Shown: positions 7,144 to 22,904 of the stretch, one piece after another
How the letters are laid out: every line of letters begins with the position of its first letter
Numbering within the stretch: the first letter of the stretch is position 1
Source of the DNA: Woeseia sp.
GTDB taxonomy: Bacteria; Pseudomonadota; Gammaproteobacteria; Steroidobacterales; Woeseiaceae
NCBI GenBank assembly: GCA_046760025.1
Contig: JBHIDG010000001.1
Span: forward strand, 1-30,041
Length of the DNA stretch: 30,041 nt
Reading direction: 5' to 3'
The notes under the pieces: generated by a model
What the model saw: only the letters and a program-made list of their open reading frames with translations
What the model was told of the DNA's origin: nothing
The model's database searches: none
Program-made: the position numbers and the translations under genes

Positions 7144-7152
7144 TTGTTGTTT
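7129..7152 (+). terminator. Possible intrinsic terminator of rpoH formed by the repeat hairpin
   Basis: CGGTGC-CCG-GCACCG stem followed by TTGTTGTTT. Confidence 0.45.
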
Positions 7153-7816
7153 ATGCCGTCACCGGCACCATCGTAATCTCGACCCTTCGGTTTGCCTGTT
7201 TGCCCGCGGCGGAGCCGTTATCTGCCACCGGAGCCGTTTCGCCCATGCCAACAGTAATCAGGCGTTGATTGTTAATGCCCTGAGTACGCAAATACGTAGT
7301 AACCGACCCGGCACGGCGCTCCGACAGGCTCTGGTTATAGCCCTGACTGCCGTCGCTGTCAGTGTGGCCTGCGACCTCCACGACTGTCTGGTCGAACTCG
7401 GTCAGCACTTTTGACACCGAATTCAGCACATCGAAAAACGCGGGGCTCAGGTCGGAACTGTCGGTTGCGAAGGTGACGTTACCCGGCATATTGAGCGTTA
7501 TATTGTCGCCGATCCTCGTGACGCTGACGCCGGTTCCCTGTAACTCGGCCCGAAGCTTCGCTTCCTGCCGGTCCATGTAGTAACCTACGGCACCGCCAGC
7601 GAGCGCACCGATTCCTGCGCCGATCAAGGCCCGTTTGCGCCGCTCAACCGAGTCGTCTCCCGAGACGAGCCCGACGACGGCTCCCGAAACGGCTCCGATA
7701 ATGGCGCCCTTCGTGGCCTTGCTGGTCTTCGCATCCCCGGTATAGGGATCAAGCGTTTCACAGCCGCTCAAGACAAAACCAACTGCCAGCACAACAGCAA
7801 CGAATTTGGTATTCAT
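7151..7816 (-). CDS. OmpA-family lipoprotein with glycine zipper (YiaD-like)
   Basis: Start MNTKFVAVVLAVGFVLSGC (ATG 7816, AAGG RBS, lipobox LSGC), Gly-zipper repeats, OmpA domain GHTDSDG...NQSLSERRA...NRRVEI. The longer upstream ORF extension is rejected. Confidence 0.92.
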   Translation of the reverse strand: MNTKFVAVVLAVGFVLSGCETLDPYTGDAKTSKATKGAIIGAVSGAVVGLVSGDDSVERRKRALIGAGIGALAGGAVGYYMDRQEAKLRAELQGTGVSVTRIGDNITLNMPGNVTFATDSSDLSPAFFDVLNSVSKVLTEFDQTVVEVAGHTDSDGSQGYNQSLSERRAGSVTTYLRTQGINNQRLITVGMGETAPVADNGSAAGKQANRRVEITMVPVTA

Positions 7817-7979
7817 GGCCCTTACCTTTTCTGCCCAAACGATTTTTATGCAGGCGCGTATTGTACGCCTTGGATAGCTGAACGAAGTCTTAACCGGCTG
7901 CTTCAAGTCCAAAAATGAGAAGCCGTTCTCATCGGGGCACCGTGTAAAATACCGGTCTCCTGACGGAAGAGGCGAATCC

Positions 7980-8447
7980 GTGTCCGAAACCGACCAGTGG
8001 CTCATCGATTATGGTGAGACTCACCAGCAGATCGACAACGCCGGGCTTTACTGGCTGGCGGTGCCGGTGCTTGTCGTGGGTATCGTCGGACTGTTGTGGT
8101 CGGCGCCCATACCGGAGGCCTTCGGCAATATCTCTCCGTTCTTGAACTGGGGAACTGCCTTCCTGATGGCCACAGTCGTCTACTACTTCGTAATTTCCGT
8201 GTCGCTCGCAATCGGCATGTTGCCCTTCCTGCTCGGCGTCGCCGCCATAACGTTGTGGCTCGAGGTCTCGGACTACCCCCTCGTGTGGGTTTCCGCCTTC
8301 CTGACTGCGATCGCCGTGTTCGGTCTGTGGCTCGGGCAACATGCGAACGGTGGCGCAAAAGCCGTGCTGCGGGACATTCAGCTCATGATGATCGCGCCCG
8401 TGTGGTTATTATCGAAACTCTACCGGCGGTTGGGCATACCATATTGA
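7980..8447 (+). CDS. DUF962/Mpo1-like membrane protein (divergent)
   Basis: W..YGETHQ..N...W.AVP N-terminus and LYRRLGIPY C-terminus match the family pattern; several TM segments. Confidence 0.75.
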   Translation: MSETDQWLIDYGETHQQIDNAGLYWLAVPVLVVGIVGLLWSAPIPEAFGNISPFLNWGTAFLMATVVYYFVISVSLAIGMLPFLLGVAAITLWLEVSDYPLVWVSAFLTAIAVFGLWLGQHANGGAKAVLRDIQLMMIAPVWLLSKLYRRLGIPY

Positions 8448-9703: not shown

Positions 9704-11017
9704 TTGTCTCTCCCCGATAACAGCGACGTATGGCGCATCGCCGCGCCGATGATCCTCTCGAACGTCTCCGTGCCGCTGCTCGGCATGGTCGATACCGGCG
9801 TCACCGGTCACCTCGAGGACGCCTCCTACCTGGGTGCGGTCGCGGTCGGGGCCACGATCTTCGGCTTCCTTTACATGGGCGTCAATTTCCTGCGGATGGG
9901 CACGACCGGTATCGCCGCTCAGCGATATGGGGCAAATGACTTCGACGGGCTCCGCGTTGCGCTGGGGCAGGCGCTTGTTGTCGCCCTGGGCATAGCCACC
10001 ACCCTGATTCTGCTTCAGGTTCCGATCGGTGCTCTTGCTCTTGGCCTCATCGGTCCCGAGGCAAGAATAGCGACATTCGCCGAGCAGTATTTCTCGATAC
10101 GCATATGGAGCGCCCCGGCGACGCTCGCCAGCTATGCGCTGATCGGATGGTTCCTCGGCCTGCAGAACGCCCGCGTCCCATTGATTATTGTGCTCGCCAT
10201 CAACATTACAAACATTATTCTCGACCTCATTCTGGTCATTGTCGTGGGAATGAAAGTCGACGGCGTGGCGCTTGCTTCCGTGATCGCGGAATATGTCGGG
10301 GTCGCGGTCGGGCTTTATTTTGTTGTCAGGGAACTGACACGTCATGAGGGACATTGGTCTGTTGCCAAACTGACCACACTTCGTGAATACGCGGCGTACT
10401 TTTCCGTCAGCGGCAACCTTTTCATCCGCACGATGGCGCTCGCCTTCACGTTCGCCTTCATCACGGCACAGGGTGCGCGCCTGGGCGGTTTGATTCTTGC
10501 GGCAAACGCCGTTCTCATGAATTTGCAGCACCTGCTTTCTTTCGCGCTGGACGGATTTGCGCATGCCGCAGAAGCCCTGGTCGGCAAGGCCGTCGGCGAA
10601 AAGAACAGGGCTGCGTTGAATCGTTCCGTCGTACTGGCCCTGCGATGGTCGCTGATCGTCGCCGCCGGCTTCAGTCTGTCTTATGCGATCACCGGTAAAT
10701 GGATTATCGCGATACTGACCGATCTGCCGGACGTTCGGGCGACATCGGGCCGTTATCTGCCATGGTTGATTCTTTCGCCGCTCGTCGCCGTATGGTCTTA
10801 TCTCTATGACGGCGTATTCGTCGGAGCGACGCTCGCGAAAGAGATGCGGGACATCATGCTGATCGCCGCATTTATGGTATTCATACCTGCCTGGTACGCA
10901 CTACAGTTTCTGGAGAACGACGGATTGTGGCTTGCGTTTCTGTGCTTCCTTGCAAGCCGTGGCATTGGCATGCATGTCTTCTATCGGCAACGACTCGCCG
11001 CTAGATCGCCTCTGTGA
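9704..11017 (+). CDS. dinF: MATE family efflux transporter, DinF subfamily
   Basis: IAAPMILSNVSVPLLGMVDTGVTGHL, FLRMGTTG, DGFAHAAE; about 12 TM. TTG start inferred. Confidence 0.85.
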   Translation: MSLPDNSDVWRIAAPMILSNVSVPLLGMVDTGVTGHLEDASYLGAVAVGATIFGFLYMGVNFLRMGTTGIAAQRYGANDFDGLRVALGQALVVALGIATTLILLQVPIGALALGLIGPEARIATFAEQYFSIRIWSAPATLASYALIGWFLGLQNARVPLIIVLAINITNIILDLILVIVVGMKVDGVALASVIAEYVGVAVGLYFVVRELTRHEGHWSVAKLTTLREYAAYFSVSGNLFIRTMALAFTFAFITAQGARLGGLILAANAVLMNLQHLLSFALDGFAHAAEALVGKAVGEKNRAALNRSVVLALRWSLIVAAGFSLSYAITGKWIIAILTDLPDVRATSGRYLPWLILSPLVAVWSYLYDGVFVGATLAKEMRDIMLIAAFMVFIPAWYALQFLENDGLWLAFLCFLASRGIGMHVFYRQRLAARSPL

Positions 11018-12380
11018 CAACCACCGGAGTTGCATGTTTTTCGCATTGTTCCTCTACAGTCCTTCTTGCCCAGGTATACGCAAAGAACCCGGTAGCCACG
11101 TTCGCTATCGCATAGGCCGCGAAGATCCCCGAAACGCCGAAGAGAAGATCGCCCACCAGTGCGAGGGGAATATAGATGACGGCCATGCGCGCGACGCTCA
11201 CGACCACGGCAGGCATCGGTTTGCCCATGCCGTTGAACGATGCGTTCATGACCATGACCATGCCATAAGCGCCATAGCTGACGGGCGCGATCCAGAGGTA
11301 CACCGCCGACACGGCGGTAACGTCCGGGTTGTCGCTGAAGAGCGAAGGCAGCCAGTTGCTCCCCATGGCCAGCAACGCCGCGATCAATAACCCGAAGCTC
11401 AGACAGAACACCGTGCAGAGCCTCAGTGCGAGAAAAATTCGCTCCGCCTTTCCTGCCGACAGGTTCTGGCCGACGAACGGCCCGATGATCGACGACATCG
11501 CGTAAAACACGACGAGCGTGACGGACTCGATGCGGCTGGCGACGCCGAAGCCGGCCACCGCATCGGGTCCATACCTCGCGATCATCGCCGTGATGACACC
11601 GGTTGCTATCGGGATGATCACATTGGTTCCCGCAGCCGGCAGGCCGACGTGCAGAATATCCGACCACGAATTCCTGATCTCGGACGCATGCGGCATCTTG
11701 AAACTCAACAGGCGGTCCCGGCGGTGCATCAGAATGATCGCGCCGATGAACAGCGCGGTCCGCGACGTCAGCGCCGCCATGGCTGCACCGTTCAGCTCCA
11801 TCCTGGGAACGGGGCCTATCCCGAAAATCAGAATCGGATCGAGAATGACATTGGCGATTGCCGCCATGACCATCAGCACGCCGGGCACCCTTGTGTCCCC
11901 CGTCGCCCGCATGCTGCTCATGCCGACCATGCCGACGACCACGAACGGCACGGCAGAGTAGAATATCTTCATGTATCCCGCGATCAGCGGGATCATGTCC
12001 TCCGGTGCGCCCATCGCCCTGAACAGGGGGCCGATCGTAGCCACACCCACGGCGCAGATGGCCGCCGTAATCAGAAAGCAGAGCAGTAGGCTGTCCGTCG
12101 CGAGACGCCGCGCCCGTCGCAAATCGTGGGCGCCGATGGCGCGCGCCACGACTGACGACGTCCCGGCACCGAGACCGATCGCGACGCTGGTCGTAACCAT
12201 TAGGATCGGAAACGCAAAACTGAGCGCCGCCAGCGCCCGGTCGCCGACCTGCCCGATGAAGTAGGTATCGGCGAACATCTGCATCATCAGGGTGAAGATG
12301 CCGAAGAGCATAGGCACGGTCATATCGACCAGGTGTCTGCCTACTGGCCCTTCCGTCAGTCTGGCTGGTTTCGATTCCAT
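11001..12380 (-). CDS. MATE family efflux transporter
   Basis: Start MESKPARLTEGPVGRHL (ATG 12380), DTYFIGQVG..ALAALSF.FP, two-fold internal repeat, about 12 TM. Confidence 0.9.
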   Translation of the reverse strand: MESKPARLTEGPVGRHLVDMTVPMLFGIFTLMMQMFADTYFIGQVGDRALAALSFAFPILMVTTSVAIGLGAGTSSVVARAIGAHDLRRARRLATDSLLLCFLITAAICAVGVATIGPLFRAMGAPEDMIPLIAGYMKIFYSAVPFVVVGMVGMSSMRATGDTRVPGVLMVMAAIANVILDPILIFGIGPVPRMELNGAAMAALTSRTALFIGAIILMHRRDRLLSFKMPHASEIRNSWSDILHVGLPAAGTNVIIPIATGVITAMIARYGPDAVAGFGVASRIESVTLVVFYAMSSIIGPFVGQNLSAGKAERIFLALRLCTVFCLSFGLLIAALLAMGSNWLPSLFSDNPDVTAVSAVYLWIAPVSYGAYGMVMVMNASFNGMGKPMPAVVVSVARMAVIYIPLALVGDLLFGVSGIFAAYAIANVATGFFAYTWARRTVEEQCEKHATPVVVTEAI

Positions 12381-12437
12381 AACAGTTTGCCGCGCTAGGT
12401 TATCATCTGCAGACTCCGGTTGATCCTGGAAAGAACG

Positions 12438-12890
12438 ATGAAAATGAAATGTGAACAGATCATTCAGGCCAGCCCCGAGTTCGTCTGGGCCATGTTCGAC
12501 AACCCGGACAACCTGAAGCGCTGGCAGCCCACTCTGGCGTCCTACGATCATAAATCAGGTAACCCAGGCCAGCCGGGCGCCGTCTCGGAGCTCGTCTACG
12601 ACGAGAACGGCAGGGAGGTCACGATGACGGAAACGGTTACAGAAAGGCGGGAACCGCATTTTCTGGCCGGCATCTACGACAACGCCTGGGCGAAATCGAT
12701 CATCGTCAATCACTTCGAAGCAATCGACGAGAATACGACACGGTTCGTTTCCTATTCGAACATGCGCTTCAAGGGGTTCATGAGAATCATGTCCCTGTTC
12801 GTCGCAAAAGCGATTCGTGCCAGGGTCGAGGCCGATCTGAATCGCTTCAAGCTGCTCGTCGAGAGCGAGGCAGCCGGCAATCCGTCGTGA
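12438..12890 (+). CDS. SRPBCC/START-like (polyketide cyclase 2) family protein
   Basis: I.ASPEFVWAMFDNPDNLKRWQP N-terminal pattern and C-terminal helix DLNRFKLLVE. Confidence 0.75.
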   Translation: MKMKCEQIIQASPEFVWAMFDNPDNLKRWQPTLASYDHKSGNPGQPGAVSELVYDENGREVTMTETVTERREPHFLAGIYDNAWAKSIIVNHFEAIDENTTRFVSYSNMRFKGFMRIMSLFVAKAIRARVEADLNRFKLLVESEAAGNPS

Positions 12891-13438
12891 CCTGGAAGAA
12901 GCTCGGTTCACGCGTCGTGTATGACAACCCGTGGATCACCGTCTACGAGGACCGTGTCATCAACCCCGGCGGCGGCGAGAATCAATACGGGCACATTCAC
13001 TTCAAGAACGCGGCCGTTGCCATAATTCCCCTGGATGACAGCGCCAACACCTGGCTAGTTGGCCAGGAACGGTACACCCTTGGCGCATACTCCTGGGAGC
13101 TGCCGATGGGCGGCGCCGCAGGCGACGAGGAACCTTTAGACGCCGCCAAGCGCGAGTTGAACGAGGAGACCGGACTCAGCGCCCGAAAGTGGACGCAGAT
13201 CATGCGCCTTCATATCAGCAATTCGATAACAGACGAGGAGGGATTCGTCTTCGTCGCAGAAGATCTGACCGAGGGCGAGCCCGGGTTCGATGAAACCGAA
13301 GACCTCGAGATACGCAAGCTACCGCTCACTGAAGCCGTGGACATGGTCGGCCAGGGCGAGATCACCGACGCGATCAGCGTTTCCGCGATCCTGAAAGTCG
13401 CGGCATCGCGCCGGCGAAAAAAGGCGTCGAACCGCTGA
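12887..13438 (+). CDS. Nudix hydrolase (ADP-ribose pyrophosphatase-like)
   Basis: Nudix box G-GAAGD-E-EPLDAAK-RELNEETGL; VYDNPWI, QERY..G..SWELP.G, GEITDA. GTGA overlap with the upstream gene. Confidence 0.9.
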   Translation: MTWKKLGSRVVYDNPWITVYEDRVINPGGGENQYGHIHFKNAAVAIIPLDDSANTWLVGQERYTLGAYSWELPMGGAAGDEEPLDAAKRELNEETGLSARKWTQIMRLHISNSITDEEGFVFVAEDLTEGEPGFDETEDLEIRKLPLTEAVDMVGQGEITDAISVSAILKVAASRRRKKASNR

Positions 13439-13479
13439 GGATCTGTGGCACTCCAGATGGTCAGCGGTTCGACCCCTTT
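13420..13479. terminator. 60-nt imperfect hairpin between convergent nudix and sortase genes
   Basis: GTCGAACCGCTGA (13426..13438) pairs perfectly with TCAGCGGTTCGAC (13461..13473); extra stems AAAGG/CCTTT and ATCTG/CAGAT. Confidence 0.55.
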
Positions 13480-13503
13480 CCTTCTGACAATCGCGGCGTC
13501 TGC

Positions 13504-14094
13504 TCAATAGATCATCTGTGCCGAAACGACGTAGCGCATCGGTCCGCCTACTTCGGGCGAAGCAAACGGGTAACAGGTAACGAGGCTCAACATCGGCGAG
13601 TCGGTATCCAGAATCAGGGAGCCGCGGCGCGAGTCGACCACATCGATGCCGGTCACCCGGTACCGGTGCTTCCTGCCTTCGGTCGTCTCGATGAGCACCG
13701 CCTCACCCTTTGTCATGTATTGCAGGAACTGGAAATGGGTATCGCGATGCCCGGCGATGATGCTGTTGCCGATCTCACCGGGCAACACGCTGGCACTCAG
13801 GTGTCCGGGGGCGAAGGCGAGCGTCCGGCCCGAACCGCCTTCGAGAACGATCAGATCGATATCGCCGCCTTTTGCCGACAGCCGCGCGACCGGGTAGGTA
13901 TCGGCCCAAGGCCAGGGCGTGGCTTGATGCTCGCCTGCGCCGGCACGTCGCCACGCACGCTGCATGAGTTCTTGCGCGACCCAGGCTTTCGCGGGGATAT
14001 AGGCTCCCTGTCCGAACTGCCAGAATCCGAAACACAGCAGACAGGACATTATGATATGTCCCGGCGCAAGCCTATGGCGCAGTCGCAGCAACAA
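13504..14094 (-). CDS. Class GN (marine proteobacterial) sortase
   Basis: N-terminal TM then IPAKAWVAQ.L, PWPWADTYPVARL; catalytic H (AGHRDTHF), C (LVTCYPF), R (RYVV). Start uncertain (TTG 14094 or ATG 14049). Confidence 0.92.
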   Translation of the reverse strand: MLLRLRHRLAPGHIIMSCLLCFGFWQFGQGAYIPAKAWVAQELMQRAWRRAGAGEHQATPWPWADTYPVARLSAKGGDIDLIVLEGGSGRTLAFAPGHLSASVLPGEIGNSIIAGHRDTHFQFLQYMTKGEAVLIETTEGRKHRYRVTGIDVVDSRRGSLILDTDSPMLSLVTCYPFASPEVGGPMRYVVSAQMIY

Positions 14095-16255
14095 GAATCG
14101 AACCCTGAACGCGTGAGAGCAAAAGCAGGAGCAGTGTAGCCAGCAGGCACGCTATACCGATAAGCCGGTGTTCGGGGGCATCGGTCGCGGTTGCCGGGAA
14201 ACTGAAAATCGCCTCATGGCTTTGCCCGTAAGGCAGAAGGTTCGGAACCTGTTCCGAATCGAGACCTGCCGAGATCGGCCGGACCGGCGTCTTGTCCACG
14301 GCGACGAGGCTCGTGAACTTGCTCACGAGATGGTGGTCGAGCGCTGTCTTGACGACGGCTGCTCTGGTTTCATCCGGATCGGCGCCGCGTCGCTCGTCGT
14401 CGAGCAGTTTCTCGATCCGGGCCCGCGCCCACAGCGCGGCAATCCCCGGGCTGTCGCTCGAACGCGCAAGCGCCAGCTCGCCGCCCCAGCTTCCGCCGGC
14501 CGAATTGCCGCCGACCGAAACGAGGTCTCCGCGCCGCGGTTTCATTGCCAGCCGCGCCTTGACGACGACCGGTTCACCGGCATAGAGGTCCGGAACGGTC
14601 TCCGGATAGCTGACCGGGCCGAGCCCGTCCGGCCATTTAATGCTTATATCCGTTATCTGCGGCTGCTCCAGCCTGCGAATGAGACGCTGCATTTTCTCGT
14701 CGATTTCATGCAGCGCGCTGATATAGCTGTACGTGCCGCGCCCCGCCTCCGCCGCCTTGCGCATGAACCAGCCGTTCGGCGCCGATCCTATGCCGACGGT
14801 AAACAACCGCGCCGAGCCGAGATCGCGCTCGATGAGCCTGTAGAGTTCCTGTTCGTTTCCGACACTGCCGTCCGTGATGAAAATGACTTGCCGCAGGTGT
14901 GTCTCGCTCGTAGCTGCGGCCAGCACCCGCTCGAGCGCCGGCCGCATGTTGGTGCCGCCATTGGCCTCGAGGCCGCGGATGTAAGCCCTGGCCATTCGAA
15001 CCAGTCCCGGTGTCGCCGCGACGCTCTGTGGAGACATCGAGCTTGTTACGGAGTTGAACTGAATGATGTTGAATCGATCCACGCTCTTGAGCCCGTCGAG
15101 TGCGAGATACAGTGCCCGCTTTGCCTGTTCGATCGATGTGCCGTGCATCGAGCCCGAGGTATCGATGACGAAAATCAGCTCTCTGGGCACGATCGCCGGT
15201 TGCGCACCGGCGTCGTTCGGCGGAAGCATCATCAACAGGACGTACGGGGTTTCCCCGAGCATTTCCGAGAACAGCATTGCTCGCGGGGCTGCATCCGGGA
15301 CGGGCCGCCAGAGGAGCTCGAGATCGTGATCGAGCGGCGCCGTGCCGTTCATCAGCGTCACGACGTAGCCGTCGTCGACCGGCTTGACCTCGATCGGATG
15401 ATATCGGCTGGCCACGATCTGCAGCGGCACGCCGGCATTGATCCCGGCGTTCAGCGTGAGCTTGTGATCCTTCGACTTCGTCACGACCGGCGGCGTGATC
15501 AGGGATGCATCCGGGACGCGGGTCGTGTCCGCCGACCAGCCCGATCCTCTCCGGTCGGGCAGCGGCGCGCCGGGAATGAATCGCGGCGTCAGCGTCAACG
15601 GAAAACGGAGGCTGAACGTGCCTTCCTCGTACTTCAGGTTTTGCAGATACCCGACCTCGACCGTTACCTTCTCGCCCGGACCGATATTTGCGACCGACGT
15701 CGTGAACAGGTTGGCGCGCTGCTGTTCCACCAGGCTTGCCCTTTTACCCAGGGCTTTCGCCTCCCGGTATTCCCTCTTCGCTTGCTCCCTTGCGCGAATC
15801 TCCCCCTCGATGAATCGCTCCCCGATGCGAATACGCAGCCGATCGACGGCCGCGTCGTCGGGCAGGGGAAATACATACATACCCTCGACCCATTCGTCGC
15901 CGTCGTTCAGAAAATTCTGTCGCACCGATACGCGGGCGATGAGCCCGCTCACGCTGAGGTCGATATCGGTATTCATGCGCGTGGCGACGCGATAGCCTGA
16001 TTGCATCCGCATCAGCAGGCTGCCGCTCTGCATCTGCGCAGGCCGCAGCTCGTCGACTATGGAATCCGGTACCTCGCTGGCCAGGCCGGGCCCCGTGAAG
16101 CAGACGAGCAGCGCCAGCGCCGGCCAGCGCCACGACGCCCTGCGCTTCAGGAGTTCGCACATCCGATGACCGGTATGTCGGGCCGGCACGACCGGGTGCC
16201 AGCGCCTTGGGCGCTCGCGCCGGGATTTCCTCGTGCCTGATACCCGGTATTCCAT
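14072..16255 (-). CDS. Marine proteobacterial sortase target protein (VIT + vWA domains, C-terminal sorting signal)
   Basis: Signal-peptide-like WRWPALALLVCFTGPGLA; VIT region (EGMYVFPLPDDAAV, ASLVEQQRANLFT); vWA MIDAS DTSGS...GGT...ITDG; C-terminal FPATAT plus hydrophobic stretch. Start chosen at ATG 16255 (GGAG 8 nt upstream); ATG 16162 is an alternative. Confidence 0.9.
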   Translation of the reverse strand: MEYRVSGTRKSRRERPRRWHPVVPARHTGHRMCELLKRRASWRWPALALLVCFTGPGLASEVPDSIVDELRPAQMQSGSLLMRMQSGYRVATRMNTDIDLSVSGLIARVSVRQNFLNDGDEWVEGMYVFPLPDDAAVDRLRIRIGERFIEGEIRAREQAKREYREAKALGKRASLVEQQRANLFTTSVANIGPGEKVTVEVGYLQNLKYEEGTFSLRFPLTLTPRFIPGAPLPDRRGSGWSADTTRVPDASLITPPVVTKSKDHKLTLNAGINAGVPLQIVASRYHPIEVKPVDDGYVVTLMNGTAPLDHDLELLWRPVPDAAPRAMLFSEMLGETPYVLLMMLPPNDAGAQPAIVPRELIFVIDTSGSMHGTSIEQAKRALYLALDGLKSVDRFNIIQFNSVTSSMSPQSVAATPGLVRMARAYIRGLEANGGTNMRPALERVLAAATSETHLRQVIFITDGSVGNEQELYRLIERDLGSARLFTVGIGSAPNGWFMRKAAEAGRGTYSYISALHEIDEKMQRLIRRLEQPQITDISIKWPDGLGPVSYPETVPDLYAGEPVVVKARLAMKPRRGDLVSVGGNSAGGSWGGELALARSSDSPGIAALWARARIEKLLDDERRGADPDETRAAVVKTALDHHLVSKFTSLVAVDKTPVRPISAGLDSEQVPNLLPYGQSHEAIFSFPATATDAPEHRLIGIACLLATLLLLLLSRVQGSILVAATAP

Positions 16256-16271
16256 CTGCGCCACTCCATTG

Positions 16272-16373
16272 TTGCCGCACAAAGCTGCGATAAGTCCAGT
16301 CCAACAAGGCATTCAGACGTGCCACGGGCACCGGCATGGCAATACACCGGCGTAATGTGGCAAATTGTGGCAA
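16272..16373. promoter_or_regulatory. Candidate PdsR operator: phased TGYGGCAA repeats in the divergent promoter
   Basis: TGTGGCAA at 16356..16363 and 16366..16373, TGGCAA at 16337..16342, TGCGGCAA on the minus strand at 16279..16272. Confidence 0.4.
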
Positions 16374-17065
16374 TGTCCAAACGAATAGCGATTGTCGAAG
16401 ACGAGGCCGCAATTCGTGAGAATTATGCAGCAGCATTCAGGCGCGAAGGCTATGCAGTCGAGTTGTACGACGCCCGCCGGCCCGCAATGCAGGCGTTCGA
16501 AGCGCGGCTGCCGGATCTCGTCGTCATCGATGTTAATCTGAAGGATGAGGTCGAGGGCGGTTTCGACCTGTGCCGCGATCTCCGCAGTCTTGCCAGCGAT
16601 TTGCCGATAATCTTTCTGACGGCCAGGGACAGTGAATTCGACGCCGTCTCGGGGTTGCGGCTGGGAGCCGATGACTATCTGACCAAGGACATCAGCCTTC
16701 CCCACCTGATGGCGAGAGTCGCGGCCCTGTTTCGGCGATTGGACGCGATGCAGAAACCGCAGGGCATAGAGTCCCGGCTGACGCGTGGTGATCTCGAGCT
16801 GGACATCGAGCGCATGACGGTGCGATGGCAGGATCAGCCCGTCGCATTGACGTTGACGGAATTCTGGATGGTTCACGCACTCGCCCGCTACCCGGGTCAC
16901 GTGAAGAACCGGCAGCAGCTGATGGACGCAGCGCAGGCGGTGCTCGATGACAATACGATCACCTCACATATAAAGAGAATACGACGCAAGTTCGTCGCTA
17001 TCGATCCGGAATTCTCAGGGATAGAAACCGTTTACGGAATGGGGTATCGCTGGCTTAGCGATTGA
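16373..17065 (+). CDS. pdsR: OmpR-family response regulator of the proteobacterial dedicated sortase system
   Basis: MSKRIAIVEDEAAIRENY, phosphoacceptor D53, FLTARDS, winged helix LTLTEFWMVHALARYPGHVK...TITSHIKRIRRKF; divergent from the sortase target. Confidence 0.88.
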   Translation: MSKRIAIVEDEAAIRENYAAAFRREGYAVELYDARRPAMQAFEARLPDLVVIDVNLKDEVEGGFDLCRDLRSLASDLPIIFLTARDSEFDAVSGLRLGADDYLTKDISLPHLMARVAALFRRLDAMQKPQGIESRLTRGDLELDIERMTVRWQDQPVALTLTEFWMVHALARYPGHVKNRQQLMDAAQAVLDDNTITSHIKRIRRKFVAIDPEFSGIETVYGMGYRWLSD

Positions 17066-17074
17066 CCACCCGAA

Positions 17075-19117
17075 ATGAACCTTCGACGCCAGTTGCTGTT
17101 GGTTAGTCTGCTGACCCTGGTGCTGCCGTGGGCGGGTTGTCAGTTTATCCGTGAGACCGAGTCCGCTCTCAGGGAGGGCCAGCAACAGATGCTGGCCGGC
17201 ACGGCGTTGGCGATCACCGATTCACTTGCACAGTTTCCCGACGAATTTTCGGTCGATGCGCCTGCCGATCAATTCGGCGAGTACCAGGTATATGGCCACC
17301 CGCTCTCGTCGGCGCCGGTGATCGACGGTTACTTCGACGACTGGCCGATCGAGCCCGAGTCAGCCAGGACGCTGCGCGGGGTCGACGGACCCATCCGTTT
17401 CGCCATCGGCATTCACGCGCAGCATGCTTACCTTTTTGTCGACGTGCCGGACGATGACATCGTTTACGCCGGCCCCGGTGCGAACGTCGTTACCGAAAAC
17501 ATCTATTCCGACCGCGTCATACTCGTTTCAGCCAGCGAATCAGCGATAACTTCACGGTTAGACTTCGCGGCCGAGGCACCGGGATCCCTGGTTGCGATAA
17601 ACAGGGCAGGCGATCAGCGGTTCGCCGAGCCGAGAATCCACGCGCACTGGCAGGATACGCCGACCGGTTATCGGCTGGAAGCCCGCCTGCCGAGGCACTT
17701 GCTCGATTCTCGACTGGGTATAGTCGTCACGAACACCAGCCGTTCGGACGATCCGGGGATTCGCAGCTCGAGTTTCAGCGGCCCGTTGCCGGGACGCCTG
17801 ATAAGCAGCTCTGCGCTCCTGCAGAGCGTCGTCACCGGTTACGCACAGCCGGGCCTGAGACTCATCGTGACCGATCGGACCGGCTGGCGGCTGGCACGCG
17901 CCGGCGGCATTTCGCTTCCCCGAAGCGACGGCGGGGCAACCAAGAGAACGTCGCGCTGGATGCGCATCGCGTATAACAGCTTGTTGGAGCCGGGTAAAGA
18001 GGCGTTGCTGGCAGAGCCGCATCCCTCGGGGCGTGAGCAGCAAAATTATGTCGCCCGCGCGCTGCACGGATCAGCGGCGACAAGCTGGTTTCGCAGCAGC
18101 AGCGACGGCCGCGCCGTAGTCGCCGTGGCGCAACCGGTCTGGTTCGGAAACGTACAGACGGGCGCCGTCATCCTGCAGCAGGGCACCGATGCAATTCTCA
18201 GTCTTACCAATCGGGCATTGACGAGGCTGATGAACTTTACGCTGATCGCGACGCTCGGGGCGGCGGGTGTTCTTCTCGGCTACTCGAGCTGGTTGTCCTT
18301 GAGGATTCGGCGCCTGAGCAGCGCAGCCGAGGCCGCCCTTGACGAGGACAGGGTGAAGACAGACCTCCCGAGCGTGCTGGCGAATGATGAAATCGGGGAC
18401 CTCTCACGCAGTTTTGCCGACGTGCTTCAACAGCTCGGCGACTACAACGAGTATCTCCGCTCACTGGCGGCCAGGTTGTCACATGAGCTGAGGACGCCGC
18501 TGACTATCGTCACCTCATCGCTCGAGAATCTCGAGCACGAACCGCTGACGGAGGAAGCCGCCAATTACACAGCACGCGCGAAGGACGGTACCACGCGTCT
18601 GCAGAAGATCCTGAACGCGATGAGTGAGGCGAGCAAGGTCGAAGAACTCATGGCAAATGTGGAACTCGAACGATTCAATCTGCATGATGCGCTCAGGGCC
18701 ACCGTTGCCGCCTATGCCGACGCGTATCCGGAGAGGCGATTCTCTTTTGCATCAGACGCCGACGATGTCTGTATCGAAGGCGCACCGGAACTGATAATTC
18801 AGATGCTCGACAAGCTGGCCGAAAACGCCGTTGAATTCAGCGCTGCCGGCGATCAGATCGACATATCGCTGTCGCCGGACACCAAAGGCGCGATCGTGGC
18901 CGTGTCGAACCCGGGTCCACGGCTGCCTGAGAAAATGCGCACCCAACTGTTCGACTCGATGGTGTCGGTCAGACCCGATCACGCGGACAAGCATCTGGGC
19001 CTGGGCCTGTACATCGCCCGAATGATAGCCGAGGGCCACCAGGGCACCATCAGCGCTGATAACATTGAGGGCGGGGTCGCGTTTCAGGTACGACTGCCCG
19101 CCGCAAGTGCTAATTGA
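17075..19117 (+). CDS. pdsS: Sensor histidine kinase of the proteobacterial dedicated sortase system
   Basis: N-terminal TM LRRQLLLVSLLTLVLPWAG, large periplasmic region, second TM, HAMP (DEIGDL), H-box SHELRTPL (H470), N-box LAENAVEF, G-box HLGLGLYI. Confidence 0.88.
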   Translation: MNLRRQLLLVSLLTLVLPWAGCQFIRETESALREGQQQMLAGTALAITDSLAQFPDEFSVDAPADQFGEYQVYGHPLSSAPVIDGYFDDWPIEPESARTLRGVDGPIRFAIGIHAQHAYLFVDVPDDDIVYAGPGANVVTENIYSDRVILVSASESAITSRLDFAAEAPGSLVAINRAGDQRFAEPRIHAHWQDTPTGYRLEARLPRHLLDSRLGIVVTNTSRSDDPGIRSSSFSGPLPGRLISSSALLQSVVTGYAQPGLRLIVTDRTGWRLARAGGISLPRSDGGATKRTSRWMRIAYNSLLEPGKEALLAEPHPSGREQQNYVARALHGSAATSWFRSSSDGRAVVAVAQPVWFGNVQTGAVILQQGTDAILSLTNRALTRLMNFTLIATLGAAGVLLGYSSWLSLRIRRLSSAAEAALDEDRVKTDLPSVLANDEIGDLSRSFADVLQQLGDYNEYLRSLAARLSHELRTPLTIVTSSLENLEHEPLTEEAANYTARAKDGTTRLQKILNAMSEASKVEELMANVELERFNLHDALRATVAAYADAYPERRFSFASDADDVCIEGAPELIIQMLDKLAENAVEFSAAGDQIDISLSPDTKGAIVAVSNPGPRLPEKMRTQLFDSMVSVRPDHADKHLGLGLYIARMIAEGHQGTISADNIEGGVAFQVRLPAASAN

Positions 19118-19133
19118 TCATTCGGAGGTCTGA

Positions 19134-19769
19134 GTGACTCTACTCGACGGCAAAGTGGCGCTCGTGACCCGTGCATCGGGCGCAATAGGGCGCGCGATCG
19201 CCGTCAAACTGGCGTCGCGCGGCGCGGCCATTGCGGCCCGCTATGGCAGCAACGTCGCAGCCGTTACCGAAACGGCCCGGTTAGTCGACGCCGCCGGCAG
19301 CAATGTGGAGATTTTCAAGGCCGACATGGCCGACGCCGCGCAGATCAGGGCTATGTTTGCCGTGATCGACGGCGCCTACGGCCGGCTCGACATACTTATT
19401 AATAACGCCGGCGTAGGCATTCAAAGAAACATCTGCGACATCTCCGAAGAAGACTTCGAGAAAACCTTCGCAATAAACACGAAGGGCTATCTTTTCTGCA
19501 TGCAGGAAGCAGGCAAGAGAATCGGCGAGGGTGGCCGTATCATCAACATATCGTCGGTCCTCGCACAACTCAGCCGCCCCGGGCCGGTCGAACCGGGAAT
19601 GTTTCAGGACACATCGGAGACCATCAGGGAGCGCGCCCGCGCACTGTCTCCCTTCAATCGGGTCGGCGCGCCGGAGGACATCGCCGACATCGTCGCTTTC
19701 CTGGCCTAGGACGAGGCCCGCTGGATTACCGGGCAGGACATCGTGGCCGCCGGCGGCGCGGTCGGCTAG
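19134..19769 (+). pseudogene. Degraded short-chain dehydrogenase/reductase (SDR)
   Basis: GKVALVT, LDILINNAG, GRIINISS present. NAD motif altered (TRASGAIG), YxxxK segment missing (LSR-PG-PVE junction), in-frame TAG at 19707..19709 followed by the expected tail DEARWITGQDIVAAGG to TAG 19767..19769. Confidence 0.85.
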
Positions 19770-19787
19770 TCTGCGTATTGCTCCAGT

Positions 19788-20279
19788 TCATTCGCCGAGG
19801 ACGCGGGCAGCCAGCAACTCAATGCTTCCGCTGCTGGAAAACTCGAGCGGCTTCGCATAGGGAATGTCGACCGTGAGGCTGCCGCTCAGTTCGTAATCCA
19901 TCTGGCGGCGTATGCCCGTTCGAATCAGCGTGGAGATAGCTGAAGTGGTCCGGAACAAATTCAATTCGGCGCTGATAGTAAATTCACCGTCGCCGTTCGA
20001 TGGCACAGTGAAGCCGCCTGGAGTTTCGCCACTGGCGAAGTGCTGATCGCCGAGCCGGACGCGATAGCGTACCGACCTGACCCGCAGTGGAAACGGATTC
20101 GGGTTGCTGACATCGAACCCGAGCAGGCAGGTCTGTCGGTCGAAGTCGATGTGCGGCATCTCGACGCTGGTAAGGGCTACAGAGGGCGTGCTTATCACTG
20201 CATCCATGCCGGCACAACCTGTGGTGGCGACAATGGCGACGAGTGATACGGCTTTCAGGCTGACTATTCGAGTATCCAT
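19788..20279 (-). CDS. LEA type 2 / WHy-domain putative lipoprotein
   Basis: Start MDTRIV (ATG 20279, GGAG RBS), hydrophobic stretch ending TTGC, hallmark V.NPNPFPL...Y, ASG motif. Confidence 0.82.
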   Translation of the reverse strand: MDTRIVSLKAVSLVAIVATTGCAGMDAVISTPSVALTSVEMPHIDFDRQTCLLGFDVSNPNPFPLRVRSVRYRVRLGDQHFASGETPGGFTVPSNGDGEFTISAELNLFRTTSAISTLIRTGIRRQMDYELSGSLTVDIPYAKPLEFSSSGSIELLAARVLGE

Positions 20280-21507: not shown

Positions 21508-21552
21508 TTCAGGGAACAGGAACGGATCCCAGGGGGTCTGTCCCCAATTTAG
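21505..21552. repeat. Degenerate REP-like element related to family B
   Basis: GGGGTCTGTCCCC mini-hairpin (21533..21545) containing the family-B core CTGTCCCC; GGGAACAG (21512..21519) pairs 7/8 with it. Lies between convergent DUF924 and MATE stops. Confidence 0.5.
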
Positions 21553-22904
21553 CCCGGAGGTTGCCGAGATACCCACAAAAACCGAATCGTCAACAGCAGC
21601 GCCGCGACCGACAGGCCCAGTACGAAACCTCCCCAGGTATAGTGAGGCTCGAGTCGGTAGGTGATAGTCGCCAGATAGGCGAGCGGAAACGCGAGAAACC
21701 AGTACGAGAATATGTTGATGAACATGGGCACCCGCGTATCCTTGTAACCGCGCAGCACCCCCGCCGCGCCGATTTGTACACCGTCTCCGACCTGAAATAT
21801 CGCAGCCATTAGCAGTAGGCTGACGGCGATCGCCTGAACCGCCGCGTCGTTGGTATAGAGTTTCACGACGATGTCTCTGAACACCAGCAGCAACAGCGCC
21901 GTGCAGCTCATGAAGACCGCGCACATCAGAATGCCGGTCGTTCCGCCGAAACGGGCTGCTGCCGGGTTCCCGGAACCCAGGGCGTGACCGACGCGAATCG
22001 TTGCCGCCGAGCTCAGCGCGAGTGGAATCATGAACATCGTTGCCGCGAAATTGATCGCAATTTGGTGGGCCGCGGTGATGTTGGCACCGCGCGTACCCAT
22101 GAGGATAGAGACCGCCGAAAAAAGGCCGGCTTCAGCCGTAATCGTCATCGCGATGGGAATGCCGAGCGCGAAAATCTCCCTGATGATCTCGAGTCGTACC
22201 GGCGCCACGCGGACGAATATCTGCAACGGCCGATACGCAGGATCAAGGTATATCCAGGAACCAAGCACGATCATGCCGAGCCACATCGAGATTGCGCTCG
22301 CGAGACCGCAACCGACGGCGCCGAGCGCGGGTGCACCGAAGTGGCCAAACATCAAAACGTAATTCAGGAACACGTTGCACGCCAGCGCGAAAACGGTCGT
22401 GTACATGATCGGCCGCGTATAGCCGATGCCTTCGGTCGTAAACCGGAAAGCGAGGAAGGCACAGATTGCAGGCGCACCGAACATGATCGCCCGAATGTAG
22501 CCAACGGTCAGATCGCGGAACTCGGTCGCGATCCCCACGAAGCGCATGGCCGGCTCGACCAGTATCTGGGCCACGACCAGGATGGATATGCCGAGCCCTG
22601 CGGCTATCCAGAGCCCCTGACGAGTGTATCGCCCGATCAGCGACGGATTGCCGGCGCCGAAATGCCGGGCCGCGATCGGCGAGATCGCCATCATCAGGCC
22701 GAGCATGACGGTAAAGCCCAGAAACCAGACACTGCCCCCGACTGCGACGGCCGCTAGCGCCTCCGCCCCAAGACGACCGGCCATCACTGCATCCGAGAAG
22801 TGCATACCTGCAATCGCAAGGTTATTAATGATCAGCGGACCGGCCAGGCGCAACAGCACCGAGGCTTCGTGACACCGGCTTTTGGTCGATGTAAAGGTTG
22901 TCAT
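21549..22904 (-). CDS. MATE family efflux transporter, NorM/MdtK-like
   Basis: LRLAGPLI...D.VMAGRLGAEALAAVAVG, LGIPIA...EAGLF, AAHQIAINF, GVLRGYKDTR.PM. Confidence 0.9.
   Translation of the reverse strand: MTTFTSTKSRCHEASVLLRLAGPLIINNLAIAGMHFSDAVMAGRLGAEALAAVAVGGSVWFLGFTVMLGLMMAISPIAARHFGAGNPSLIGRYTRQGLWIAAGLGISILVVAQILVEPAMRFVGIATEFRDLTVGYIRAIMFGAPAICAFLAFRFTTEGIGYTRPIMYTTVFALACNVFLNYVLMFGHFGAPALGAVGCGLASAISMWLGMIVLGSWIYLDPAYRPLQIFVRVAPVRLEIIREIFALGIPIAMTITAEAGLFSAVSILMGTRGANITAAHQIAINFAATMFMIPLALSSAATIRVGHALGSGNPAAARFGGTTGILMCAVFMSCTALLLLVFRDIVVKLYTNDAAVQAIAVSLLLMAAIFQVGDGVQIGAAGVLRGYKDTRVPMFINIFSYWFLAFPLAYLATITYRLEPHYTWGGFVLGLSVAALLLTIRFLWVSRQPPG

Follow-up and report, generated by a model that had tools for sequence, protein, structure and literature searches.

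A four-gene proteobacterial dedicated sortase module in Woeseia with an ITIH-like target and a candidate PdsR operator

We analysed a stretch of DNA of 30,041 nucleotides from Woeseia sp. (the window), which is contig 1 (JBHIDG010000001.1) of a metagenome-assembled genome of 3.39 Mb in 551 contigs, estimated to be 88% complete. The subject of this report is a group of four genes at positions 13504-19117, which is almost certainly a four-gene proteobacterial dedicated sortase (Pds) system orthologous to SO2192-SO2196 of Shewanella. The open reading frame (ORF) listing contains four long ORFs in this interval. The minus strand has a 746-codon ORF (14072..16312) and, after it, one of 196 codons (13504..14094), and the plus strand carries a 248-codon ORF (16319..17065) and a 680-codon ORF (17075..19117). 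Families were assigned by NCBIfam profile search with the cut-off of each model, and domains were assigned by Pfam. The four genes are as follows.

13504..14094, minus strand: class GN sortase gene; N-terminal membrane anchor and periplasmic catalytic domain (TIGR03784, Pfam Sortase).
14072..16255, minus strand: sortase target gene, ITIH-like, with VIT and vWA (MIDAS) domains; the ORF is open to 16312 (TIGR03788, VIT, VWA_3).
16373..17065, plus strand: pdsR (= pghR), OmpR/CreB-like response regulator (TIGR03787, Response_reg and Trans_reg_C).
17075..19117, plus strand: pdsS (= pghK), sensor histidine kinase (TIGR03785, full length below cut-off; HisKA and HATPase_c).

The sortase scores 208 bits against TIGR03784 (cut-off 158), the target 728 bits against TIGR03788 (cut-off 552) and PdsR 391 bits against TIGR03787 (cut-off 336). 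PdsS reaches 540 bits against TIGR03785, under the cut-off of 612, with an alignment that runs end to end (3-675 onto 1-703), and its gene occupies the syntenic position. The initial annotation had named exactly this set of four families and had described the catalytic residues as intact. The profile search agrees on the set, with three members above cut-off and TIGR03785 full length below it, and every residue named could be read in the sequence: the H in GHRDTH (115-120), C174 in TCYPF and R187 in MRYVV of the sortase, the MIDAS of the target, the phospho-acceptor D53 of PdsR (counted from ATG 16373) and H470 of PdsS in SHELRTP. By sequence, the closest solved relative of the sortase is Bacillus anthracis SrtC (2ln7).

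The target is likely to start at ATG 16255, which has a GGAG Shine-Dalgarno sequence eight bases upstream; this ATG and its GGAG are conserved in the window and in the two closest relatives (L008 and L009). With the target start at ATG 16255 and the pdsR ATG at 16373, the gap between the two genes is 117 bp. The gap had been given correctly by the initial annotation, which had placed pdsR and pdsS as divergent across it; this orientation needs correction, as the two genes are co-directional and 9 nt apart, and they diverge as a pair from target-sortase. For the sortase, TTG 14094 or 14091 is a more probable start than ATG 14049, since the TTG starts yield a basic N-terminus and a membrane anchor, as in relatives. 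Depending on this choice, target and sortase overlap by 20-23 nt (TTG 14094/14091) or lie 22 nt apart (ATG 14049), in line with the earlier description of two genes that overlap or abut on the minus strand.

The closest homologues of the target are found in Woeseia and in Woeseiaceae metagenome-assembled genomes (84% to 57% identity). The sortase is single-copy in its genome. Of 101 genomes of the family, 77 have a sortase match over cut-off, and of the 64 high-quality ones, 58 have a match at E <= 0.001; the sortase was not found in three genera of the family, one of which has very small genomes. Because it is near-universal across the family genomes, the sortase is, judged by this distribution, an old and vertically kept trait of Woeseiaceae. 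The arrangement of target followed by sortase was seen in all of the 80 related loci that were compared, and PdsR and PdsS lie upstream and divergent in 35 of them. Most Nitrospira-type target-sortase loci (L020, L031, L036, L040-L042, L048-L050 and others) have no PdsR/PdsS within about 6 kb, and so these modules would be regulated differently or from a distance.

The following features were located in the target gene.

16079..16162, minus strand: Sec signal peptide without a lipobox (MCELLKRR...GPGLA↓SE), from sequence reading and 80 homologue N-termini.
15149..15163, minus strand: MIDAS motif DTSGS, residues 384-388 of the vWA domain.
14183..14200, minus strand: sorting motif FPATAT, residues 705-710, from the C-terminal alignment of 80 loci.
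14075..14176, minus strand: hydrophobic membrane stretch and short tail of the sorting signal, residues 713-746, from hydropathy and alignment.

The 80 homologue N-termini carry ordinary AxA-type Sec signal peptides with no conserved Cys. The idea of the target as a lipoprotein (an Lpp-like tether) was discarded, as no lipobox is conserved among these N-termini. FPATAT is the Woeseiaceae variant of [LMWFY]PxTAT: in the 80 loci, Woeseiaceae have FPATAT, and the motif elsewhere is [LMW]P[QKRAG]TAT or YPxTAT. About 20 residues preceding the motif (residues 683-704; 14201-14266, minus strand) follow the pattern NLPxG......[IV]FG and are conserved across phyla. Recognition of the sorting signal may extend beyond the six residues of the motif. 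When the genome was scanned in six frames, one protein with a canonical sorting signal was found. A possible second substrate with IPGTAT on contig C191 was rejected, the motif being located in a polytopic HXXEE-type membrane protein with no signal peptide. Complex prediction for the sortase (16-196) and the target tail (676-746) yielded a score of 0.02, a value that speaks neither for binding nor against it.

The AF2 model of the mature target (pLDDT 85.8) matches ITIH1 (6fpy) over about 620-650 columns (E 1e-36, TM 0.64/0.68). The earlier remark that the VIT-vWA architecture mirrors the inter-alpha-trypsin inhibitor heavy chains (ITIH) can now be extended to a full-length fold match. The sequence search of the target also reaches PARP4, ITIH4 and ITIH1, and pilus-tip adhesins are present among the weaker fold matches of the model. 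Across 49 aligned homologues, the MIDAS residues D384, S386, S388, T454 and D481 do not vary. The folded body of the model ends about 15 residues before FPATAT, with no wall-spanning linker; because the protein is predicted to be folded so close to the motif, cleavage and transfer would have to occur at the membrane surface, where lipid II sits. The likeness to the VIT-vWA proteins ITIH1 and PARP4 thus covers the fold of the whole mature protein and an intact MIDAS, and both the heavy chains and (by prediction) the bacterial target undergo cleavage close to the C-terminus and covalent transfer to a polymer. The chemistry is different. The heavy chain is attached by a C-terminal Asp ester to glycosaminoglycan in a transfer carried out by TSG-6, whereas the sortase signal here implies a Thr amide. 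There is no DPHFII-type site in the translated target, whose C-terminal region carries the sortase signal instead, and the sequence identity is about 16%.

PdsS has two membrane segments around a periplasmic sensor of about 360 residues (17150-18229). Pfam assigned no domain to this sensor, and neither it nor the PDB sequence search detected CBM9, which was found by fold search only. The AF2 model of the sensor, built from 30 homologues (pLDDT 82), has the CBM9 structures 7nwn, 7nwo and 1i82 as its best PDB matches (probability 1.0, TMt 0.53-0.55), with weaker PAS/Cache-type sensor matches lower in the list. The modelled sensor is CBM9-like, in agreement with the description of Shewanella PghK, and because of this agreement we take the kinase to be a true, if divergent, PdsS despite its score below cut-off. 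For regulator and kinase alike, CreBC comes second among the families (CreB 186 bits, CreC 155 bits), and creD belongs to the Shewanella PghR regulon. The scores are, however, far below the CreB and CreC cut-offs, and the PdsS sensor is much larger and CBM9-like.

One regulatory element was located between the target and pdsR.

16337..16374, no strand assigned: candidate PdsR operator, with TGGCAA boxes at 16337, 16358 and 16368 and a degenerate box between.

The boxes are spaced by 21 and 10 nt, and 82 nt separate the element from the target ATG downstream of it. A block that reads TGGCAAT, 14 nt, TGGCAAA is invariant across six Woeseiaceae intergenic regions, and a third TGGCAAT 10 nt further on is present in the window and in the closest relative (L008). 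In the Woeseiaceae locus L012, which is without an adjacent two-component system, the 0/21/31 box layout is kept 66 nt upstream of the target ATG, which argues for assigning the operator to the target promoter. Tandem TGGCAAT-type repeats at 10-11 bp are found upstream of pdsR in distant gamma- and betaproteobacterial loci, and tandem TTGCCAT-N4-TTGCCAT is found upstream of canonical pdsO genes scoring above cut-off. On the strength of this conservation we propose the TGGCAA boxes as a candidate PdsR operator. A sigma-54 promoter was considered for these boxes and rejected, since the -12 GC is not kept in L011 and the repeat of the boxes follows the helical phase. The strict operator element occurs at this one site only in its own genome. 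Loose two-box matches number 9 and 17 genome-wide, compared with 1-9 in shuffled genomes, and none has the three-box layout. The single strict copy suggests a narrow regulon, within a genome that is 88% complete. An inverted repeat (GTGCC-ACG-GGCAC, 16319-16331) is located just upstream of the first TGGCAA box, and the closest relative shares part of it.

No PdsO gene (TIGR03789) was found in the window, and for lack of a linked PdsO the cassette has four genes where the canonical form has five. Genome-wide, the highest score of a PdsO-like protein is 111 bits (cut-off 152), for one encoded on contig 22. In Sedimenticola, a PdsO-like gene of similar score lies between pdsR and the target. An OmpA-like gene in the window (7151..8005, minus strand), 5.5 kb from the sortase, was considered as PdsO and set aside; it encodes a YiaD-family glycine-zipper/OmpA-like lipoprotein (264 bits, over cut-off). 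The present copy adds another member to an already catalogued system, and its lineage-specific details are the predicted sorting motif FPATAT, no linked PdsO and a single copy of the candidate operator.

The PdsO-like gene of contig 22 stands in a trio (C22:233-3170; L001:1-2154 covers the 3' part) in which two paralogous genes for membrane-anchored coiled-coil vWA proteins, with MIDAS motifs DNSAS and DTSGS, precede the PdsO-like OmpA protein. The trio recurs in two other Woeseiaceae genomes (L088 and L089) and may be a separate vWA/OmpA-like envelope system.

Directly after pdsS, a short-chain dehydrogenase ORF (19134-19709, plus strand) matches positions 1-150 only of models of about 250 positions. 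The remainder was not found in the overlapping frame 19531-19860, and the gene is probably truncated. Three genes for MATE-family efflux transporters flank the sortase module: 9704-11017 (plus strand, DinF-like), 11001-12551 (minus strand, generic) and 21549-22904 (minus strand, NorM-like).

The Shewanella oneidensis system SO2192-SO2196 consists of PghK/PghR (= PdsS/PdsR), PdsO, the ITI-family target SO2195 and the marine sortase SO2196. The Woeseia module and the Shewanella oneidensis and Shewanella algae pds loci have the same sortase, target and response-regulator families, and the kinase matches full length below cut-off. They also share the two-component system divergent from target-sortase, the CBM9-like sensor and the pairing of one sortase with one VIT-vWA substrate, and tandem TTGCCAT-type boxes are present in the divergent promoter of canonical pdsO loci. 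The Woeseia module differs in that there is no pdsO in the locus and no PdsO over cut-off in the genome. The sorting motif is FPATAT here and PQTST in Shewanella (PMC13712847), and the intergenic distance is 117 bp here and 232 bp there. The Shewanella regulon is also wider (blaA, relV, creD and phoPQ), whereas no second strict operator is present in the 88%-complete Woeseia genome.

In S. oneidensis, PghKR is activated by peptidoglycan-targeting antibiotics and by loss of PBP1a. Activation of PghK needs its CBM9-like periplasmic domain, and PghKR raises the expression of blaA, relV and the neighbouring pdsO-SO2195-SO2196 operon by more than 17-fold (bioRxiv 10.1101/2023.05.05.539549). PghR-dependent induction was seen with ampicillin, carbenicillin and D-cycloserine. 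The target SO2195 is required for tolerance of beta-lactams and D-cycloserine and keeps the envelope integrity of spheroplasts, and its deletion increases the permeability of the inner membrane and not of the outer membrane (PMC13712847, mBio 2026). The authors of that work leave open the need for the sortase and the anchoring site. In S. algae, the pdsS mutation G547W was selected during therapy and all five genes were up-regulated (PMC11580497). A stress-response role of the Woeseia module, predicted from Shewanella, is in our judgement nearly certain. The initial annotation had suggested a signal-induced system for envelope scaffolding or repair, a suggestion that fits both PghKR induction and spheroplast protection by SO2195. 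It had also considered the function and the acceptor of such cassettes unresolved; of the two, the function is addressed by the Shewanella work. Its ranking of the module as the best candidate for an uncharacterised system has been overtaken by the same PghKR and SO2195 experiments.

A second comparison concerns the acceptor. B. anthracis SrtC, a class D sortase found with its substrates BasI and BasH and the two-component system SctRS, cleaves LPNT↓A and uses meso-diaminopimelate (m-Dpm) as nucleophile, and the wall compartment in which BasH is anchored lies between two membranes (PMC3297441). Its likeness to the Woeseia module lies in the scissile T↓A bond within an xPxTA motif, in a sortase with very few substrates accompanied by a two-component system, and in an acceptor, m-Dpm, that is the diamino acid of Gram-negative peptidoglycan. 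In contrast, class D models score only 75-80 bits here, far under their cut-offs, and the substrates are unrelated. The SrtC system also serves sporulation, not a stress response, in a Gram-positive host.

From these comparisons we favour, with moderate confidence, a working model in which damage sensing leads to induction and then to sortase transfer of the ITIH-like target to an envelope amine. The CBM9-like periplasmic domain of PdsS would detect peptidoglycan damage, as was shown in Shewanella, and PdsS would phosphorylate PdsR at D53. Within the 117-bp divergent region, PdsR would then bind to the phased TGGCAA boxes and activate the target-sortase operon; here the regulation was demonstrated in Shewanella and the operator is proposed from conservation. 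The ITIH-like VIT-vWA protein would be exported by Sec and kept in the inner membrane by its C-terminal anchor. The membrane-anchored sortase would cut FPAT↓AT and join the carboxyl of the threonine to an amine, most likely that of the free meso-diaminopimelate side chain in lipid II or in stem peptides that are not cross-linked. This acceptor is favoured because SrtC uses m-Dpm, diderm peptidoglycan offers the same amine, and the reaction would sit at the membrane. The attached protein may stabilise the damaged envelope, possibly via Mg-dependent self-association through its MIDAS. ITIH1 self-associates via its MIDAS site and thereby cross-links hyaluronan (PMC7170535), and by analogy the full-length ITIH1 fold and the invariant MIDAS site suggest such a step here. 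Both the acceptor and the cross-linking step are offered as hypotheses.

A bolder form of the model, which we put forward tentatively as a possibility, is a damage-directed protein staple. The sortase would target the free meso-diaminopimelate amines that accumulate when transpeptidation fails, and MIDAS pairing would replace the lost cross-links. If true, such a staple would be a bacterial counterpart of the heavy-chain cross-linking of hyaluronan.

Several points weigh against the working model. Our literature search found no biochemical study of a class GN sortase and no experiment on cleavage at the motif or on the acceptor. Within the locus, the kinase score stays below its cut-off and PdsO is missing from the window. 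One operator box abuts the pdsR ATG, which leaves pdsR's own transcription hard to place, and a sigma-70 consensus scan of 13300-19400 found no promoter-like site. The organism is uncultured, and induction and expression of its module are predictions. In Shewanella, SO2195 expressed alone restores tolerance in the pghR mutant, and sortase overexpression was without effect in that assay, so the phenotype may not need transpeptidation; in addition, protection was seen in spheroplasts, which have little peptidoglycan to attach to (PMC13712847).

The rescue by SO2195 alone and the protection of wall-poor spheroplasts keep alive an explanation in which no covalent attachment is needed for protection: the sortase would mainly process or release the target, with water as the nucleophile, or the target would work while anchored in the inner membrane. 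The rescued pghR mutant is one in which the sortase is barely induced. The inner-membrane phenotype of the SO2195 deletion points the same way, as does the model of the Woeseia target, in which no linker separates the predicted body from the membrane anchor. Yet the sortase gene comes directly after the target in 80/80 loci across phyla, the motif and the 20 residues preceding it are strongly conserved, and basal sortase may suffice in the rescue experiment. Sortases generally prefer transpeptidation when a nucleophile is present. Release or anchoring without attachment is in our judgement unlikely.

Covalent transfer could also be directed to another envelope amine, such as a lysine of a partner protein (an OmpA-like protein of the PdsO type or an outer-membrane protein) or the head group of phosphatidylethanolamine, and would then give a protein-protein or protein-lipid conjugate. 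The canonical loci co-transcribe the OmpA-like PdsO with the target, and the conserved Woeseiaceae trio, in which a PdsO-like protein is kept together with two other vWA proteins, gives a hint of partnership between vWA and OmpA-like proteins. A transfer confined to the membrane surface, as the target model predicts, would suit such acceptors as well. PdsO is unlinked here, however, and did not appear in the retrieved flanks of many loci; a peptidoglycan cross-bridge amine is the acceptor for the nearest characterised sortases; and no pilin-type lysine motif turned up, although no systematic search for one was made. We regard a non-peptidoglycan acceptor as improbable. That the target is a surface adhesin or biofilm matrix protein, with a two-component system that answers environmental polysaccharides and not cell-wall damage, is very improbable: vWA/MIDAS proteins are common adhesins with pilus-tip adhesins among the weaker fold matches here, and CBM9 modules bind plant and algal polysaccharides that would fit a marine-sediment habitat, but the locus has no outer-membrane export device, the Shewanella system responds specifically to peptidoglycan-targeting drugs and PBP1a loss, and the best fold match is full-length ITIH1, not a pilus adhesin.

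Among diderm bacteria, no sortase pathway other than Pds is widespread, and in Shewanella the system is linked with tolerance of, and resistance to, beta-lactams. The copy described here shows the module as a core, vertically kept feature of Woeseiaceae, which are among the most abundant bacterial groups of marine sediments. In this family the module is predicted to work without a linked PdsO and with an FPATAT signal. Concrete handles on the acceptor question come from the conserved candidate operator, the full-length ITIH1-like fold and the invariant MIDAS.

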